A stretch of 24,000 nucleotides of DNA, from NCBI RefSeq assembly GCF_044923475.1, contig NZ_CP137338.1:4151404-4175403 (forward strand). Direction: 5' to 3'. The notes under the pieces are model-generated. The model was not told the DNA's origin. It saw only the letters and a program-made list of their open reading frames with translations, and searched no databases. Shown one piece after another: positions 828 to 21,179 of the stretch (positions within the stretch are counted from its first letter, which is position 1; each line of letters opens with the position of its first letter). The DNA is from Altericista sp. CCNU0014. Its GTDB lineage: Bacteria; Cyanobacteriota; Cyanobacteriia; Thermosynechococcales; Thermosynechococcaceae. Position numbers and translations under genes: made by a program.

Positions 828-3206
828 ATGAATTCTCACCCAAAATGTCATGCTAATGGCGGTAGCCCTGTGGTTCATCCGCAGCAATATAGCACAGTCC
901 CCAAAGCAATTATTTCTCAGGCAGAGCAGCAAGACCGCAGCCTCCAAAAGAGCGAGTTGACTGCCTTAGCCAACTACTTTCGTTCGGGCTCAAAGCTAAT
1001 CCAGATTGCGGCAACGCTAACCCAGCACTCGGAGGCGATTGTGGAAGCGGCAGCCCATCGGATCTTTTACGGCGGAGTGCCGATGGCCTACCTGGAACCT
1101 CCCGCCAATCGCAAAGATCTGCCGGGGTATTCCAAGCCCCTCCGACAAAGGTCAGTGACGTCTCAGGAAGCGCTCAAGGTTCAGGCTCCAAAGTTTGGCA
1201 ACTCCCTAGGCAACTTCCTTGCATTTTGGAAGACGCAGTTCAGCGCCAATCGGGAACCCATACCGGAGGGATTCCGCACGATCGATATTGGACGTTACGG
1301 CCCCACTCGCATGAAACGCTCGATGCGTGACTTGAGCTGGTTTTTGCGCTACGTCACCTATGCGATCGTTGCTGGGGATTCTAGCATCTTAGTCGCGAAC
1401 GCCCAGGGATTGCGGGGGGTTATTCCAGAAGATGTCACTGAGGCAACGGTGGTGGCGATTAAGGAAATGCGTTGGAGATCGCTAGGTTACTTCAAGACCG
1501 ACCCAGAGGCTACGGCTATCATTCAGCAACACTTTGACGACCTGGTTGCAGCCTATATCGTCGAGAAACCGCCGACCCTTTTGCGGCAGGGGTTTTCTAA
1601 CGACCAACAAGGGCTGCAACTGCCTGAAAGCTATGCACTCTCGTCCGCCTCCCAGTCCAAATTTGTAATGAAGTCAGGGCAAGCGGTTACGGAGCAAAAT
1701 CGCGTAATTCAGGCGGCCTATCGGCAGGTCTTTGAGCGCGATATTACCCGCGAGTACGGCATATCCCTAACAGATTTGGAGTCTAAGCTCAAGGGCGGTG
1801 AAATTTCAATGAAGGAGTTTATCCGTCGTGTCGGAAAATCGCGACTGTATCGCAAGGAGTTTTACGAACCCTTTACGATTAGCCGCGTCATTGAGCTGGC
1901 AATTCGGCACTTTCTAGGGCGGGGATTGAGATCGCCAGAAGAGTTTCAGCAATATTTTGAGCTGATGGCTCAGACAGGACTGCCAGCCTTGGTAGACACG
2001 CTGGTAGACTCCCAAGAGTATGCCGATTACTTTGGCGAAGAAACAGTACCCTACCTGCGCGGGTTGGGTCAAGAAGCTCAAGAGTGCCGTAATTGGGGTC
2101 CGCAGGCAGCGTTGTTTAAGTACAGTACCCTAGCCCGTAAAGTGCCTCAGTTTATTACGCTCTTTGGCGACTATCGGAAACCGTTGCCAAACCAGCATCC
2201 CTACGGATTGGGCAACGATCCGCTTGAAATCCAGTTTGGGGCAATCTTTCCCCATCAAGATCGTAACTTTGAGGAGCATCCGGCCTTATTTGACCCAGAC
2301 AGTCGCCGTATTTTGATTGGCTGTAACGTGTCTAGTCGCTCACCTCATGAGACGACTTTGGGACAAGTGCCAGGGTCTACCCAACGGGTGCTCAAGCTGA
2401 ATTGGCCTATCCGCCTCCATGGTCGTGGCAATGGTAAAAGCGTCGCGCAAGGTGCCAGCATTAATCTGAACAATCAGTCTACCTCGGCGTTTATTGATGC
2501 AGCCTATCGCCAGATCTTTGGACGAGATATTCTCGTCAGCCAACGGGTACCTGCGACGGAACTGAAGCTGAAAAGCGGCGAAATCCCAGTGCGCGAATTT
2601 GTCCGCCAAGTGGCAAAATCTCGTCTGTTCCGCCATCTGTATTGGGATGCGCTGTACGTTACTAAGGCTATCGAATATATCCATCGACGGCTTCTGGGAC
2701 GGCCCACCTACGGACGACAGGAAACGCGACGCTACTACGATATCTGCGCCAGGAAAGGGTTTTATGCGCTCATTGACGCTATTCTGGACAGCCCGGAATA
2801 TCTGAATGCTTTTGGAGAAGATACGGTTCCCTACGAGCGTTACGTCACGCCGAGAGGGTATGAAATGCGATCGCACCATCGGGAGAGCAGCAGTAACAAT
2901 AGCTCAGTTGGCCAACCTCGCGTTGCGGATGGGACTTGGGTTAAAGCGGCGCTTCAGAGAGCGGGGCATCTCAGGCAAGATGGGATTCTAGCATTGCTTC
3001 CAGGTGCGGAGCCAGCAATGCTTTTACCTGCTCGGGAACCTAATGCTTTGCCGGAGTCTGAGGGCGAACATTTGGTAACAGCTACATCAGCTTCTACACC
3101 AGCTTCGGTTGCCGAAGACCCTGCAACTTTGTCAACGGCTTCAGCGCAACCTTCTGCTGCAATTCAGTCTGATTCCTATGGTTCCTATGGATCGGTGGCA
3201 CTATGA
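828..3206 (+). CDS. apcE2: Far-red phycobilisome core-membrane linker ApcE2: phycobiliprotein-like domain plus two REP linker domains, 792 aa
   Basis: N-terminal ISQAEQQDRSL...MRDLSWFLRYVTYAIVAGD matches the ApcE PB domain with its loop insertion. Two linker repeats are present (AAYRQVFERDI...EETVPYLR and AAYRQIFGRDI...EDTVPYERY), versus 3-4 in conventional ApcE. The PB domain has Val (nt 1434-1436) in PEDVTEA where canonical ApcE has ENACSGEA. The start codon is uncertain. Confidence 0.9.
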   Translation: MNSHPKCHANGGSPVVHPQQYSTVPKAIISQAEQQDRSLQKSELTALANYFRSGSKLIQIAATLTQHSEAIVEAAAHRIFYGGVPMAYLEPPANRKDLPGYSKPLRQRSVTSQEALKVQAPKFGNSLGNFLAFWKTQFSANREPIPEGFRTIDIGRYGPTRMKRSMRDLSWFLRYVTYAIVAGDSSILVANAQGLRGVIPEDVTEATVVAIKEMRWRSLGYFKTDPEATAIIQQHFDDLVAAYIVEKPPTLLRQGFSNDQQGLQLPESYALSSASQSKFVMKSGQAVTEQNRVIQAAYRQVFERDITREYGISLTDLESKLKGGEISMKEFIRRVGKSRLYRKEFYEPFTISRVIELAIRHFLGRGLRSPEEFQQYFELMAQTGLPALVDTLVDSQEYADYFGEETVPYLRGLGQEAQECRNWGPQAALFKYSTLARKVPQFITLFGDYRKPLPNQHPYGLGNDPLEIQFGAIFPHQDRNFEEHPALFDPDSRRILIGCNVSSRSPHETTLGQVPGSTQRVLKLNWPIRLHGRGNGKSVAQGASINLNNQSTSAFIDAAYRQIFGRDILVSQRVPATELKLKSGEIPVREFVRQVAKSRLFRHLYWDALYVTKAIEYIHRRLLGRPTYGRQETRRYYDICARKGFYALIDAILDSPEYLNAFGEDTVPYERYVTPRGYEMRSHHRESSSNNSSVGQPRVADGTWVKAALQRAGHLRQDGILALLPGAEPAMLLPAREPNALPESEGEHLVTATSASTPASVAEDPATLSTASAQPSAAIQSDSYGSYGSVAL

Positions 3207-3427
3207 CACAACTCAATCAATCGACTCAATTTGAGGTTACTCAATATGAATCGACTCAATTTTTAACTCGCCCGCTCCCCCAGACCTCACGCGCACTCAA
3301 TCTTGAACCTGTAACGCGGAGTAACCTATGGCAACGGCTCTTTCGCTATTTCCCTAGACCCCAGCGCAGACTCTATCTGGGCTGGTTTGGAGGGATACAA
3401 ATTTACTATAAAGGGAGGCGACCATGA
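3203..3427 (+). CDS. 74-codon micro-ORF resembling the N-terminal stromal tail of D1/ChlF; either a coupled small gene or a psbA-family relic
   Basis: ATGA overlap with the apcE2 stop (3203-3206) and ATGA overlap with the next apcD start (3424-3427). The C-terminal half NLWQRLFRYFPRPQRRLYLGWFGG is collinear with in-window Chl[25 protein letters not shown], with the same W-to-GWFG spacing. DNA at 3374-3390 versus 12174-12190 matches at 15 of 17 positions. Confidence 0.4.
   Translation: MTQLNQSTQFEVTQYESTQFLTRPLPQTSRALNLEPVTRSNLWQRLFRYFPRPQRRLYLGWFGGIQIYYKGRRP
3211..3301. repeat. Array of five ACTCAAT heptamers, including a 14-mer AATCGACTCAATTT repeated with a 30-bp period
   Basis: ACTCAAT occurs at 3211, 3224, 3239, 3254 and 3295. 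AATCGACTCAATTT occurs at 3219-3232 and 3249-3262. Confidence 0.7.
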
Positions 3428-3945
3428 GCTTAGTTCAGCAGGTGATTCAAACTGCTGCTGAGGAATTGCGCTACCCCACCCCAAGCGAGATTCGTACGAT
3501 CCAAAACTTCTGCGAAACCGGAGAACGACGGATCCGCATTGCGCAGATTTTGGCTAGCCACGAGCGGGAGCTGGTGGAGCGCGGCAGCTACCAGTTTTGG
3601 AAGCAGTGTCCCGTGACGCCTAGTAACAGCGGCAGTCTTCGTAAAACGGCTTCCTGTCAGCGCGATCAGGGGTGGTATATCCGGTTGGTGGCCTACTGTA
3701 TTTTGGCAGGAAATGAGAAGCCCATGGCCGATATTGGCACCATCGGCATGAAGGAAATGTACAAGTCTCTAGGTATTCCGCTGGCGAACTGGGTGGAGGC
3801 CGTTCGCTGTCTCAAGGCAGAGGCGATCGCCCTCCTCGGCGAAGAAGACGCAGTGGAAGTCACGCCCTACTTCGACCACATTATCCAAGCATTAGCCTAT
3901 CCCGGTGCCCCCTACTTCATGAACGAAGGCGTTCTGACGTACTAG
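3424..3945 (+). CDS. apcD3: Far-red allophycocyanin alpha-type (ApcD-family) subunit, 173 aa, with a short C-terminal extension
   Basis: RYPTPSEIRTIQNF, chromophore Cys in ASCQRDQGWYIRLVAYC, PYFDHIIQAL followed by an extra AYPGAPYFMNEGVLTY. AGGGAGG Shine-Dalgarno at 3412-3418. The paralog number is tentative (synteny memory only). Confidence 0.8.
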   Translation: MSLVQQVIQTAAEELRYPTPSEIRTIQNFCETGERRIRIAQILASHERELVERGSYQFWKQCPVTPSNSGSLRKTASCQRDQGWYIRLVAYCILAGNEKPMADIGTIGMKEMYKSLGIPLANWVEAVRCLKAEAIALLGEEDAVEVTPYFDHIIQALAYPGAPYFMNEGVLTY

Positions 3946-5058: not shown

Positions 5059-6460
5059 TCCTGCCACTATTACAACGGTTAAAACAGCCAAAGGTATTAA
5101 GATTGTCACCCCTAGTGAAGGACGCGATCAGGCTTCCACTGGCTATGCTTGGTGGGCTGGTAATATGCGCCTTGCTAACATGTCTGGTCGGTTTCTGGGC
5201 GCGCACTTGGCCCATGCCGGACTGATGGCGTTTTGGGCTGGAGCCATGCTGCTGTTTGAGGTGTCTCACTTTACGCCCGATAGACCCATGTACGAGCAGG
5301 GCTTAATTTTAATGCCCCATGTTGCCACCTTAGGATTTGGTGTGGGGGCTGGGGGGCAGGTCATTGATATCTTTCCCTTCTTTGCAATTGGGGTCATTCA
5401 CCTCATCGGCTCGGGAGTATTGGGTATTGCGGGGACGTACCTTGCCATTCGCGGCCCCGCAAAGCTTCCCGGTTTTTTAGATTTTGACTATGGCGACAAG
5501 GACAAAATCACCCTAATTCTGGGATTCAACCTGATTTGGCTCGGCGTTTTTGCCCTGCTCTTTGTCTGTAAGGCCATGTTTTGGGGCGGGATCTACGACA
5601 CTTGGGCACCAGGGGGCGGCAACGTGCGCCTGATTACCCATCCCACCCTCAATCCGCTGACGATTTTTGGTTACTTGGTTCGAACGCCCTACGGTCAGCA
5701 GGGATGGATTATCGGCGTCAACAATATGGAAGATCTGGTGGGCGGTCATATCTGGGTGGGTGTCCTGCTGATTGCAGGTGGCATCTGGCATGTTGTCACC
5801 ACACCCTTTAAATGGACGCATAAGATTTTTACTTGGACAGGGGAAGCCTATTTAGCTCAGAGCTTAGGCAATATCTGCGGGCAAGCCTTTATTGCAACGG
5901 CGTTTATCTGGTTTAACACGACGGCCTATCCCAGCGAGTTTTATGGGCCAACTGCAGCGGAAGCTTCTCAGGCTCAGGCACTCACGTTTTTAGTGCGGGA
6001 TCAAAATCTTGGTGCAAACGTGGTTTCTGCGCAAGGGCCTACGGGCCTCGGGAAATATTTGATGCGATCGCCCAGCGGAGAAATCATCTTTGGTGGAGAA
6101 ACCATGCGCTTTTGGGATTTCCGAGGGCCTTGGCTAGAGCCGCTGCGCGGCCCTAACGGGTTAGACCTCGATAAAATTCGCCACGATGTCCAGCCCTGGC
6201 AAGTGCGACGCGCAGCGGAATACATGACCCATGCACCCCTCGGTGCCCTTAACTCAGTGGGCGGAGTGGCCACCGAAATTAACTCCGTCAACTTCATGGC
6301 AACCCGAACGTGGTTAGCAGGCTCTCACTTTATTCTGGCCTTCCTGTTTTTAGTGGGGCATCTCTGGCACGCCGGACGGGCCCGTGCGGAAGCAGCTGGA
6401 TTTGTGCGGGGCATTAATCGCGATCGCGAACCGGTCAAGGCCATGGCTCCCCTAGATTAG
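5042..6460 (+). CDS. psbC2: Photosystem II CP43, far-red paralog; GTG start preferred, alternative ATG at 5015
   Basis: [46 protein letters not shown] and onward matches CP43. GAGGAGG at 5026-5032 lies 9 nt before GTG 5042. A GTG start inside the psbD 3' end is the established arrangement for psbC. Confidence 0.9.
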
Positions 6461-6488
6461 TCCCTAGATTGATACAGAGGTGTTCGGG

Positions 6489-6525
6489 ACGGAGGATGCT
6501 GCAATTCCCTTCAGGCATCCTTCGT
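6489..6525 (+). terminator. RNA stem-loop after psbC2 (11-bp stem with one G-U pair, 15-nt loop) followed by a short CTTTTCC tract; weak terminator or processing/stability element
   Basis: ACGGAGGATGC (6489-6499) pairs with GCATCCTTCGT (6515-6525). Confidence 0.35.
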
Positions 6526-6585
6526 CTTTTCCTAACTTACTTTCTCTTTCCATTGAAATTCTGTTCGTAAAAGGAGTAAAACCCA

Positions 6586-8439: not shown

Positions 8440-8802
8440 ATGGAAACCACAAAATATCCTCCCAAAAAGATCGCTCCCATCCAGTATCTGCTGAGAAAAC
8501 TAAATTCTAATACTGGCATGGTGGTTCGGGGTTGGGGTACAGCCCCCGTCATGGTTGTTTTAATGCTGCTATTTTTCTTGTTTTTACTCATTATTTTTGA
8601 AATTGCTAATTCATCCATTCTGCTGGAGGGCATTAACATCGATTGGTCAGTCCTCGATCGATACAGTGGCACACCCGCAACCCAAAACCCGTCTTTTGCG
8701 ACGACGGGAATTGGAATCTTTTTGGGGCTACTGGCATTTGGACTATGTTGCGCTGCGTTCATCGTCTACGGATACCTAACCTATCCAGACGACGCCAAAT
8801 AG
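8440..8802 (+). CDS. psbH2: Photosystem II PsbH, far-red paralog, with a roughly 50-aa C-terminal extension carrying a predicted second TM helix (120 aa total)
   Basis: Residues 13-69 ([56 protein letters not shown]) are collinear with canonical PsbH of about 64-67 aa. The reading frame stays open to 8802 and encodes [30 protein letters not shown] lies 6 nt before the ATG. Confidence 0.85.
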
Positions 8803-12014: not shown

Positions 12015-13157
12015 ATGATGACCCAATTCGATCGGGCGATGTTCGATCAGGCGATCGCCAGCGATCAAATTTGCACCGATCGAGTCTCTACAAGGAATGC
12101 TTTAATTCAGCGTCAGAATCCCCTATCTTGGGAGCGATTTTGCCAATGGGTAACCAGTACCGAAAACCGCTTTTATCTAGGGTGGTTTGGGGTGCTGATG
12201 ATACCCACACTCTCTACAGCAGCGATTGTTTTCGTCATTGCCTTTATTGCTGCCCCTGCGGTAGATATCAACGGCATTGGCACTCACCTGTCTGGATCTT
12301 TATGGGATGGAAATAGCCTTTTAACCGCTGCGGTGGTTCCCACATCGGCTGCAATTGGACTACATTTTTATCCCATTTGGGATGCGGGTTCTGTCCAAGA
12401 GTGGTTGATCAATGGCGGCCCTTATCAGCTCATCGTGCTGCACTTTGCAATTGGCATCATCTGCTACCAAGATCGAGAGTGGGAGCTGTCCTACCGTTTG
12501 GGCATGCGTCCTTGGATTTCCATGACCTTCACTGCGCCCGTTGCTGCAGCGTTATCCGTTTTAATTATTTACCCGATCGGTCAGGGTGGATTTGCGGAAG
12601 GGATGCCCCTCGGAATTTCCGGTACTTTCCACTTTATGTTTGTGTTTCAGGCAGAACACAACATTCTTATGAGTCCCTTTCACCAGTTGGGGGTTATAGG
12701 GGTCTTTGGGGGCGCTTTTCTTTGTTCTGTACATGGGTCTTTAGTGACTTCAACACTATTTAAAAAGACAAAGCCCCACGAACCGATTAATGCCGGATAT
12801 AAACTGGGTCAAAAAGAAGAAACTTATAGTTTTAAGGCCACTCAGCGCTATCAACAGAAACTCTTTTGGAAAGGTCTGTTTTTTCCTAGCTCGCGCTCAG
12901 TTCATTTTCTGCTGGCGGCATTGCCCGTGGCAGGCATCTGGTCAGCAGCGCTAGGGGTTGATATTGCGGCCTTTAACTTTGAAAAACTGACCTTTGACCC
13001 GCCTGTCGTCATTGACAATCCATCAGGCACTATTCCCACGTGGGCCAATGCTGTCCGTAGCGCTAACGCAGGGCTGGCAATGGCGAGCGGACGGGATGGC
13101 AACCCCTTTCCGCAAATGTTGGAGTTCAGCGATGAACCCGTAAGGGTTACGCGCTAA
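12015..13157 (+). CDS. chlF: Chlorophyll f synthase (super-rogue D1, PsbA4), 380 aa
   Basis: D1 fold ([15 protein letters not shown]...[13 protein letters not shown]...). It has CYQDREWEL where D1 has CYMGREWEL. D170 is replaced by E (GFAEGMPLG). The C-terminal Mn-ligand block EVMHERNAHNFPLDLA is replaced by [18 protein letters not shown]. There is an N-terminal extension of about 20 aa. Confidence 0.9.
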
Positions 13158-19376: not shown

Positions 19377-19517
19377 ATGCAGTACTTTCTGAAATATCTG
19401 ACCAGCGCTCCAATCATGGCGGCACTAACAATGGCCATCCTTGCGGGGGTCCTCATTGAGCTGAACCTCTTTTTCCCAGGGTTGCAGTACGGTACTTATT
19501 TTCACTCAGTTCCGTAA
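19377..19517 (+). CDS. psaJ2: Photosystem I subunit IX (PsaJ), far-red paralog, 46 aa (below the ORF-track length cutoff)
   Basis: Hand translation: MQYFLKYLTSAPIMAALTMAILAGVLIELNLFFPGLQYGTYFHSVP*. Resembles canonical PsaJ (..FLSTAPVM....AGILIEFNRFYPDLL). Confidence 0.8.
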   Translation: MQYFLKYLTSAPIMAALTMAILAGVLIELNLFFPGLQYGTYFHSVP

Positions 19518-20234: not shown

Positions 20235-21179
20235 CTAAGCGTCCATCGAGCTAGGGTTTTCTTGTGCGAAGGGAGCGATGGCGGGAGATTTGGGCGCGCT
20301 TAAACTGCGCCAGTAAAGGGTGCCAGCCACCGCCATGAAGACGAGATAGGCGATCGCTTGGCCTAGGAAAAGGCGATCGCGGTAACCCAAAAAGGTCTTC
20401 AGCAAAATACCGGGGAACTGACGATCTGGCAAAATCAGGTGTCCGTCCCACAATAACGGTCCCAAAATGCAGGAATCGGCGGATGGGATCGGACAAAGAT
20501 TTGTGGAAACGAAGGGATTCAGGATCCCGAGGGCTGCATCGAGCTGTTTGGTCGCTCCTAAAACAAGGCCGCCGACAATCAGCAATAAGAAAATCCCCAT
20601 GATCTGAAAAAACTGCTTGAGGTTGATGCGGATGCCGAGGGCAAAGAGCGCCCAACCGATTCCCGTTGCGCCTATGAGACCGGCGATCGCCCCCGCAACG
20701 GAAGACCACCCGCTCTGAAGTTGGGCCACGATAAACAGCGCGGTTTCGATGCCCTCTCGCAGTACCGCCACAAAAATGAGCGTCCAGATGCCCCATTCGG
20801 CTTTCCCGTCGGCGGCAATCATTTGCTTTACAGATCCTTCAATTTCGGCTTTGGCAGTGCGGGCTTGCCGAGTCATCCAGATCAGCATCCAGGTGAGCAT
20901 GGCGATCGCCACTAGGCTAAAGCTCAATTTGAGAAACGGCAGCAGCACTGCTGCGTAGGGTTGCTCGGATGCTTGCAAGCTCTGGAGCAAGGCGCTGAGT
21001 CCTACACCCACGAGGACGCTCCCGACCAATCCTGAAGCTAAGCCAAAGTACACCCAATGCTTGAGTTGAGGCTGCTGTGCTTTCTGAAGCAGGGCTAGGA
21101 CGATGCCGACCACGAGAGCTGCTTCGACGCCTTCTCGTAGGGTAATGACGAAGGTGGGAAGTGCGGCACTAATATCCAC
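20235..21179 (-). CDS. FTR1/EfeU-family high-affinity iron permease, 314 aa
   Basis: Two REGxE motifs (REGVEA near the N-terminus, REGIET mid-protein) in a polytopic hydrophobic protein. Confidence 0.85.
   Translation of the reverse strand: MDISAALPTFVITLREGVEAALVVGIVLALLQKAQQPQLKHWVYFGLASGLVGSVLVGVGLSALLQSLQASEQPYAAVLLPFLKLSFSLVAIAMLTWMLIWMTRQARTAKAEIEGSVKQMIAADGKAEWGIWTLIFVAVLREGIETALFIVAQLQSGWSSVAGAIAGLIGATGIGWALFALGIRINLKQFFQIMGIFLLLIVGGLVLGATKQLDAALGILNPFVSTNLCPIPSADSCILGPLLWDGHLILPDRQFPGILLKTFLGYRDRLFLGQAIAYLVFMAVAGTLYWRSLSAPKSPAIAPFAQENPSSMDA

Follow-up and report, generated by a model that had tools for sequence, protein, structure and literature searches.

We analysed a stretch of 24,000 nucleotides (nt) from Altericista sp. 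CCNU0014 (contig NZ_CP137338.1, positions 4,151,404 to 4,175,403; hereafter the window), which gene calls and profile matches identify as a far-red light photoacclimation (FaRLiP) cluster. Between apcE2 and apcD3 the window contains an open reading frame (ORF) of 74 codons, running from ATG to TGA (3203..3427, + strand), that we refer to as the micro-ORF. Comparison with homologous loci indicates that it is a real, conserved small gene and not a chance ORF. The same comparison establishes it as a selected small gene of the apcE2-apcD3-psbD3 stretch in FaRLiP clusters of groups V and VI, adjacent to these genes, on the same strand and mostly overlapping with its neighbours. About 60 homologues of 43–127 amino acids (aa) were found overall, and the profile searches described below point to the 5′ end of a psbA-family gene as the most probable origin of the family. 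FaRLiP has been treated as a closed set of parts, about 20 genes with a few accessory ones besides, and this list guides the engineering of far-red photosynthesis into other organisms. On the evidence of sequence, the micro-ORF looks like an overlooked accessory part of this far-red-light photosynthesis gene cluster.

Conservation of the micro-ORF and of its peptide

The micro-ORF is joined to both of its neighbours. The ATGA at 3203-3206 contains the stop codon of apcE2 and the ATGA at 3424-3427 contains the start codon of apcD3, as had been noticed in an original prediction made from the letters of this DNA alone. The ATG at 3203 is the sole in-frame start codon. The downstream gene, predicted to be an apcD, proved to be an ApcD3 orthologue (3424..3945, + strand, 173 aa) with a Pfam Phycobilisome match and 66–92% identity to ApcD3 proteins; its ATG lies inside the ATGA that closes the micro-ORF.

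A protein search with the window ORF recovered two products that are 77% (P0001) and 55% (P0002) identical to it, both encoded in the order apcE2-ORF-apcD3 with two ATGA overlaps. We read the region 5′ of apcD3 in every frame in 74 ApcD3 loci of named genomes, in the window and in three contigs to which P0001 and P0002 led. An ATG-initiated ORF of 47–133 aa lies 5′ of apcD3 in 28 of the 77 loci retrieved with ApcD3 or via the protein, the window and these contigs being counted in, and all 28 ORFs end in the motif R/Y-h-[YHS]-h-[GSA]-W-F-G-G-[VIL]-x-[IV]. Every member starts with ATG, and many are preceded by a GGAG-type site. A profile search of 5.8 billion proteins detected 29 members, and an exhaustive HMMER pass over 1.84 billion representatives detected 41 members at E ≤ 0.001. 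These database members range from 43 to 127 aa and share the motif without exception; Pfam recognises no domain in any of them, and the names, where given, are "hypothetical protein". A pattern scan of metagenomes added little: 6 out of 111 pattern matches were confirmed, comprising two new members, two D1 variants with GWFGG and two ChlF. The original prediction had offered a retained microprotein as one of its options, and the conservation of both the ORF and the peptide motif in ~60 sequences at the same position supports this option.

The context is as well conserved as the motif. All looked-up members bar one (>30 loci, including loci reached from the protein) are in the order apcE2-ORF-apcD3, and the micro-ORF lies within the FaRLiP cluster, contiguous and co-directional with the far-red paralogues. 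The exception, P0158, comes from a 3-kb contig of the Sequence Read Archive (L091, 2339-2722; 127 aa as called, with a probable internal start MLQFNN...), where it follows a ParA/CbiA-like gene and has no apc gene beside it. The copy may stand alone, mark the edge of a cluster or result from a chimeric assembly.

We mapped the distribution of the micro-ORF on a neighbour-joining tree of ApcD3, and assigned loci to groups V and VI by comparing member names with those of Antonaru et al. The micro-ORF is present in 32 out of 33 sampled loci of two clades, Oculatellales/Leptolyngbyales (group V) and Nodosilineales (group VI). Carriers include Leptolyngbya JSC-1 (L011, 3824-3973), Elainellaceae, Nodosilinea, Romeria, Phormidesmis and a metagenome-assembled genome (MAG) of Aphanocapsa. 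The sole group V/VI locus that lacks it, L005, has an apcE2-apcD3 gap of 29 nt. With all frames read, the micro-ORF was found in none of the 44 loci of Nostocales, Pleurocapsales/Chroococcales, Hydrococcus and Chroococcidiopsis. The conservation in other FaRLiP spacers that the original prediction had proposed as a check therefore holds within the two groups but not beyond them. The micro-ORF is not a core FaRLiP gene; it is at most an accessory gene of groups V and VI, and its absence from four FaRLiP lineages implies that the product is dispensable. Groups V and VI are the earliest-branching FaRLiP groups according to Antonaru et al. (bioRxiv 10.1101/2024.05.15.594131). The simplest history would thus be that the micro-ORF was present in the ancestral cluster and was lost once later.

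We assessed selection on the peptide using a codon table of 30 distinct family DNA sequences. W-F-G-G, located by family alignments at 3383-3394 (+ strand) in the window, is unchanged in all 30. The first Gly codon is GGC, GGA, GGG and GGT in 15, 7, 4 and 4 sequences, the second is GGC, GGT, GGA and GGG in 13, 8, 6 and 3 sequences, and the Phe codon is TTT in 25 and TTC in 5. The positions flanking W-F-G-G hold their residue class (I/L/V; Y/H/S; R/W/H) despite non-synonymous first-base changes. An unchanging W-F-G-G, encoded with all four GGN forms at each Gly, shows that selection acts at the level of the peptide and in this reading frame. By contrast with this motif, the family's N-terminal halves are unalignable and differ widely in length and sequence. 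In the window, this variable half contains a 15-nt tandem repeat of 2.8 copies (3219..3260, + strand), and the copy number varies within the window's clade. The member on metagenome contig L003 (10001-10288) has six QFELA units and one QFELT with the frame intact, indicating that the N-terminal half of the product tolerates large changes in length.

Two other origins of the conserved signal were considered and rejected. An RNA element was ruled out, since Rfam gave no match in the micro-ORF region and RNAalifold on 14 loci detected no conserved structure (−0.95 kcal/mol, without compensatory pairs). The single-sequence RNA fold of the region has z = −1.86. A frameshifted ApcE2 tail was also ruled out, as the ApcE2 spacer tails of Nostocales and Pleurocapsales have no similarity to the family Hidden Markov Model (HMM) in any frame.

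Resemblance to the N-terminal segment of D1

Residues 36-67 of the window product (3308..3403, + strand) lie in register with D1 residues ~7-38, which comprise the surface helix near the N-terminus and the beginning of transmembrane helix A. Within this region, SNLWQRLFRY (residues 40-49; 3320..3349, + strand) is predicted by AlphaFold2 (AF2), with low confidence, to be an amphipathic helix and would be the counterpart of the first D1 helix, which contains Trp-14. The core R-L-Y-L-G-W-F-G-G-I-Q-I (residues 56-67; 3368..3403, + strand), which is conserved in the alignments, is predicted by AF2 to be a beta-hairpin around the GG turn. The micro-ORF ends 10 residues past GWFG, before any transmembrane helix.

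The D1 paralogue of the window, chlF (psbA4; 12015..13157, + strand), matches the micro-ORF with its N-terminal residues 39-63 (nt 12129-12203). The alignment is ungapped over 25 residues with 10 out of 25 identities, and has a BLASTP E = 7e-6 for that single comparison. At the DNA level, 3374-3390 agrees with 12174-12190 at 15 of 17 positions, and both mismatches are synonymous third positions. The ungapped alignment and the DNA match had been pointed out in the original prediction, and both were reproduced, as was the spacing of 17 residues between Trp and GWFG. A further echo, between TSRAL in the micro-ORF and STRNAL in ChlF, is too weak to serve as evidence.

By its statistics, the likeness to the N-terminal segment of D1 and ChlF is specific. 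We searched 177,635 distinct PDB sequences (E ≤ 10) with two family profiles. Profile A3, built from 25 members without D1, gave 53 matches, all 53 of which are photosystem II (PSII) D1 (best E 1.9e-5, D1 residues 11-34). Profile A8, for which 44 database members were used with neither the window sequence nor D1 among them, likewise matched D1 in 53 out of 53 cases (best E 2.1e-5, D1 residues 5-34). Neither of the two profile searches detected a family member among the PDB sequences. When 25 members were compared with NCBIfam, psbA (TIGR01151) was the sole model matched by more than one of them (4 of the 25, best E 6e-4). Residues 36-67 of the window ORF match positions 7-38 of this model with 14.7 bits and E = 0.009, short of the curated whole-protein cut-off of 596 bits. 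A profile match to the PsbA family, which had been suggested as a way to verify the resemblance, was thus obtained with this model as well as with the family profiles (~2e-5). Pfam gave no match for the window ORF (E ≤ 10) or for the 25 members, and hence none to Photo_RC (PF00124). We note that this blank is uninformative, because the Photo_RC model starts at FYLGWFG (ChlF residue 53) and could overlap the family by at most ~8 residues.

The similarity extends beyond the aromatic core. In a six-frame set of all loci (28,299 segments), every N-terminus of D1, PsbA3 and ChlF ranks just below the family and above unrelated segments. When GWFG was used to fix the register, the 16 positions (−20 to −5) located 5′ of the R-x-Y-x core are more D1-like than permuted D1 (z = 3.2–3.8 for D1 and PsbA3, and 2.5 for ChlF). 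One member, P0161 (LWERFTRRIAKPRRRLYIGWFGG), shares 13 of 22 residues with D1 without gaps.

Some features of the N-termini hint weakly, and in low-complexity sequence, at chlF rather than canonical psbA as the donor. Group V ChlF proteins start with MMTQFDR or MTQFGR, and group V micro-ORFs start with MTQLNQ, MPQLD or MSKLG (the window, L001, L085 and L089), so that the two share an M-T-Q-[LF]-[DNG] start as well as a long extension before the Trp. In the L001 micro-ORF, the Trp aligned to D1 W14 is residue 39, the same position as Trp-39 of the window ChlF.

Two observations on psbA genes themselves were made during the searches. Two full-length D1 genes from metagenomes (L084, 2375-; L086, 311-1468) read YIGWFGGLMIP, with a change from Val to Gly, showing that genuine D1 can carry the GWFGG form. 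In a Waterburya MAG (L028), a 66-aa ORF (2057-2257) has a psbA/chlF N-terminus that breaks off exactly at GWFG, and it adjoins a truncated psbB-like ORF (2224-3129). This fragment is an independent case of a psbA 5′ piece made by rearrangement beside far-red apc genes.

Possible function and alternative explanations

The family is basic, with a median isoelectric point (pI) of 10.5 and a net charge of +6. The two AF2 runs, each on a different member, agree on one low-confidence layout: the N-terminus is disordered, a 10-residue helix takes the place of the first D1 helix, and a hairpin turns at GWFGG. The first D1 helix carries Trp-14, which is hydrogen-bonded to PsbI Ser-25, and D1 degradation by FtsH requires the N-terminal helix (PMC10665015). 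As regards the decoy or adaptor role in FtsH-dependent turnover that the original prediction had raised as speculation, the D1-like part of the family corresponds to D1 residues ~11-34, not to the extreme N-terminus engaged by FtsH, and sits at the C-terminal end of the product behind a long variable tail.

As the best explanation of these data we propose a psbA-derived, trans-acting small protein with a D1-like module, usually coupled to apcD3, and we give this account as a whole an even chance of being correct. On this account, a piece from the 5′ end of psbA or chlF would have entered the apcE2-apcD3 junction at an early stage of FaRLiP evolution and would have persisted there as a truncated paralogue. 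It would encode a small protein of strongly basic character, whose disordered, freely varying N-terminal tail leads into an amphipathic helix and then into a short hairpin centred on GWFGG. This protein would most likely act in trans on the cytoplasmic side of the thylakoid, where it may show a D1-like surface to a usual partner of the D1 N-terminal segment, with PsbI and assembly or turnover factors as candidates; an alternative target would be the far-red allophycocyanin core, whose genes surround the micro-ORF, at its acidic base. Handing ribosomes on to apcD3 would be an added effect in most genomes, with the coupling not being the conserved part. Every step past a conserved, selected and D1-like product, including the partner and the direction of action, is purely what we infer. 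More tentatively, the product may be an ancient part of the far-red apparatus, either an accessory subunit or a factor in its assembly, that imitates in soluble form the N-terminal helix and interface segment of D1 and was taken from the 5′ end of chlF or psbA. Docking on a partner of the D1 tail (PsbI, FtsH or assembly factors) or on the base of the allophycocyanin core, it would control antenna-PSII coupling or the exchange of white-light for far-red D1.

The arrangement of the genes suggests a different role, in which the micro-ORF is a cis-acting leader that delivers or stalls ribosomes at the apcD3 start and sets ApcD3 stoichiometry, with the released peptide being functionless. In about three quarters of the loci, apcD3 begins before the micro-ORF has ended, with an ATGA in 16 and an overlap of +13, +28 or +37 nt in ~10. 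A purine-rich, Shine-Dalgarno-like AAAGGGAGG for apcD3, read from the sequence (3410..3418, + strand), lies within the final codons (K70-R72) of the micro-ORF, and similar purine-rich runs precede apcD3 in 14 aligned loci. Overlap with apcD3 is a general feature of the preceding ORF, because apcE2 itself overlaps apcD3 where the micro-ORF is missing: the overlap is 14 or 29 nt in 20+ loci, which speaks for this explanation, and around position 4001 in L016, L019, L029-L035, L037-L040, L042, L044-L046, L048, L049, L054, L061 and L068 the apcE2 frame extends beyond the apcD3 ATG by 14, 29 or 35 nt. ATGA at both ends is also the layout of coupled overlapping ORFs. The conserved C-terminus with its invariant Trp, the variable N-terminus and the location just 5′ of the next ribosome-binding site recall arrest and leader peptides such as TnaC, SecM and MifM, and exactly 10 residues follow WFGG in 18 of 38 members. 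It is probable, from this layout, that ribosomes finishing the micro-ORF feed apcD3.

As the whole function of the gene, this role seems unlikely to us. Unlike in arrest peptides, neither the spacing of motif and stop codon nor that of stop and start codons is constant: 6–27 residues follow WFGG, the stop is 5–33 nt before apcD3 in six lineages, and the overall range from stop to ATG is +37 to −33 nt. In one lineage (L078-80), a 43-aa member with the motif has its own strong ribosome-binding site, TAAGGAGG, and is located ~420 nt 5′ of apcD3, and one copy is found in a non-apc context. Simple coupling requires no conserved peptide, no conserved RNA structure was detected, and the D1 homology would be left unexplained. 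With a geometry this variable, a pure coupling or arrest role is possible but is not the best fit.

The lineage of L078-L080 is abundant in metagenomes, and its micro-ORF sequence is present in 54 blocks of the assembly collection. The ~420 nt at 6133-6553 consist of inserted repeats, including runs of CACCCCT-type heptamers and a palindrome-like element, GGGCAGTGCCCACCC.

Several observations weigh against a D1-derived, trans-acting protein. The D1 match scores ~27 bits, and no D1 was detected at E ≤ 0.001 in the 1.84-billion library. Identity to D1 is concentrated in 8–9 residues, so that the family may instead have converged on an interfacial GWFG motif. The likeness in Trp and spacing on which the original prediction had relied is true in the window, but a Trp aligned to D1 W14 is kept in just 6 of 38 members (including the window) and is often replaced by Leu. 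The ratio of non-synonymous to synonymous substitution rates (dN/dS), proposed earlier as a check on selection, was 0.16, 0.49 and 1.19 among the three closest sequences (the window, L001 and L003); computed from 5–11 substitutions, these values are too noisy to be informative, and it is the codon table that supports selection on the peptide. The AF2 predicted local distance difference test (pLDDT) score was ~58 in both runs, which we used for secondary-structure tendency alone. Lastly, the published structures of the far-red allophycocyanin core (Synechococcus 7335 and Chroococcidiopsis 7203) and of far-red PSII report no extra small chain and, for the cores, list no unassigned one. The Chroococcidiopsis 7203 lineage lacks the micro-ORF, and Synechococcus 7335 belongs to group VI, although its genome was not looked at for the micro-ORF.

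If the D1 likeness is convergent, the product could belong to the far-red antenna as a basic, linker-like protein comparable to ApcC (CpcD domain) or ApcG. Phycobilisome linkers are basic, and the micro-ORF product is likewise small, strongly basic and encoded inside the apc block; the concentration of D1 identity in a short aromatic, glycine-rich motif and the lack of significance of D1 at whole-database scale also point this way. Nonetheless, we consider this explanation improbable, somewhat more so than a leader function. The micro-ORF has no sequence or profile similarity to ApcC or ApcG, no Pfam or NCBIfam match to the linker domains PF00427 and PF01383 was found in any of 25 members, and such a chain was not seen in the solved far-red allophycocyanin cores. 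The similarity to D1 is in register over ~25–30 residues, beyond the core, and D1 was the sole match among the PDB sequences up to E = 10. It is far less probable that the micro-ORF is a functionless ORF, either a decaying relic of the psbA family or a chance product of the spacer. The near-free evolution of the N-terminal half with its repeat expansion, the four FaRLiP lineages without the micro-ORF and the psbA 5′ fragment of L028, which shows that such pieces do arise in these clusters, would fit this view. However, the ORF is open with an ATG in 28 of 28 motif-bearing loci across two deep orders, WFGG is invariant despite saturated synonymous change, and loss is seen in just 1 of 33 group V/VI loci. 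The original prediction had linked a decaying relic to the absence of psbA3 from the window; this link fails, since an intact psbA3 lies just 5′ in L001 and L003.

We compared the proposed D1-like protein with known systems. The conserved 25–30 residues align without gaps to D1 ~5-34, covering the Trp-14 helix, the loop and the R-x-Y-x-G-W-F-G entry to helix A, and the micro-ORF shares its cluster with two psbA paralogues. Unlike PsbA, the product has no Photo_RC domain, transmembrane helix or cofactor ligands and measures 43–127 aa versus ~360 aa. After GWFG the family continues with G-[VIL]-x-[IV]-[YH] and a short polar tail, whereas D1 continues with the helix VLMIPTLL. MicroProteins are truncated paralogues that keep one interaction module, as in LITTLE ZIPPER of plants or in ID proteins. 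By its sequence, the micro-ORF would resemble them in encoding a short product homologous to one surface segment (D1 5-34) of a larger protein, with the functional core lost and genes of the same pathway beside it. We know of no microProtein example from photosystem subunits or cyanobacteria, and the product would be the first reaction-centre-derived microprotein.

The micro-ORF also resembles the accessory FaRLiP genes, listed as rfpD, psbH2, psbH2′, psbO2, psbV2 and psbF2 in Table S8 of Antonaru et al. (bioRxiv 10.1101/2024.05.15.594131), in being lineage-restricted, short and embedded in the cluster, with a distribution that follows groups V and VI of these authors. It differs from them in not appearing in that list. 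An unnamed hypothetical protein in group V clusters is mentioned by Antonaru et al., who call it conserved and do not state its position in their text, and in the Kovacikia euganea paper; it may or may not be the micro-ORF. A literature search that covered text and not the figures of cluster maps gave no description of the micro-ORF and none of a small FaRLiP gene derived from D1. If the two lineages that branched first share a further conserved gene, the cluster would gain a component for which structural and genetic studies have not searched. The micro-ORF is located exactly at the junction of antenna and PSII genes, and its probable source segment in D1 is cytoplasmic, meets PsbI and is required for FtsH-mediated degradation. 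A naturally isolated D1 N-terminal segment would give a handle on how that segment is recognised. The predicted tryptic peptides are LYLGWFGGIQIYYK for the window product and QSVHISWFGGIQIR for that of Leptolyngbya JSC-1.

Gene order and other features of the window

The micro-ORF is preceded by an ApcD-type gene (apcD2; 277-759) and, directly 3′ of it, by apcE2 (828..3206, + strand), which the ORF list and translation give as a far-red core-membrane linker of 792 aa whose TGA stop (3204-3206) lies inside the start ATGA of the micro-ORF. The apcE2 product is 52–95% identical to ApcE2 in 70+ loci (tblastn), and the orthologue on L001 matches Pfam Phycobilisome and PBS_linker_poly. The 3′ end of apcE2 contains a perfect 9-nt tandem duplication (3173-3190; TTCCTATGG x2, encoding SYGSYG) that is not in the close relatives L001-L003.

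Near-identical metagenome contigs extend the cluster in the 5′ direction. L001 and L003 carry a full-length psbA3 (360 aa), rfpB and three apc genes 5′ of apcE2, which indicates that psbA3 has not been lost and lies just past the 5′ end of the window. In both contigs psbA3 was gene-called as 324 aa; a split gene was ruled out, as a complete 360-aa ORF with its own N-terminus is present.

Downstream of apcD3 the genes psbD3, psbC2 and psbB2 follow in that order. They are followed by psbH2 (8440-8802, 120 aa), by rfpA and rfpC, which lie between psbH2 and chlF, and, 3′ of chlF, by psaA2, psaB2, psaL2, psaI2, psaF2 and psaJ2 (19377-19517). According to Antonaru et al. (bioRxiv 10.1101/2024.05.15.594131), the gene order rfp, chlF, psa is that of group V (Oculatellales/Leptolyngbyales), and their Table S8 describes a psbH2-psbH2′ fusion as typical of this group. 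The window psbH2 has a PsbH domain at residues 17-62 followed by a second hydrophobic segment, which matches this fusion and supports the placement of the window in group V.

Opposite psbC2, Rfam reports IsrR, the antisense RNA of isiA, at 5491-5675 on the − strand (107.9 bits). This match is most likely a by-product of the homology between isiA and psbC (CP43 family) and not a true antisense RNA gene. About 0.7 kb past psaJ2, an FTR1-family iron permease gene is encoded on the − strand (20235-21179), which places the end of the far-red cluster before ~20000.

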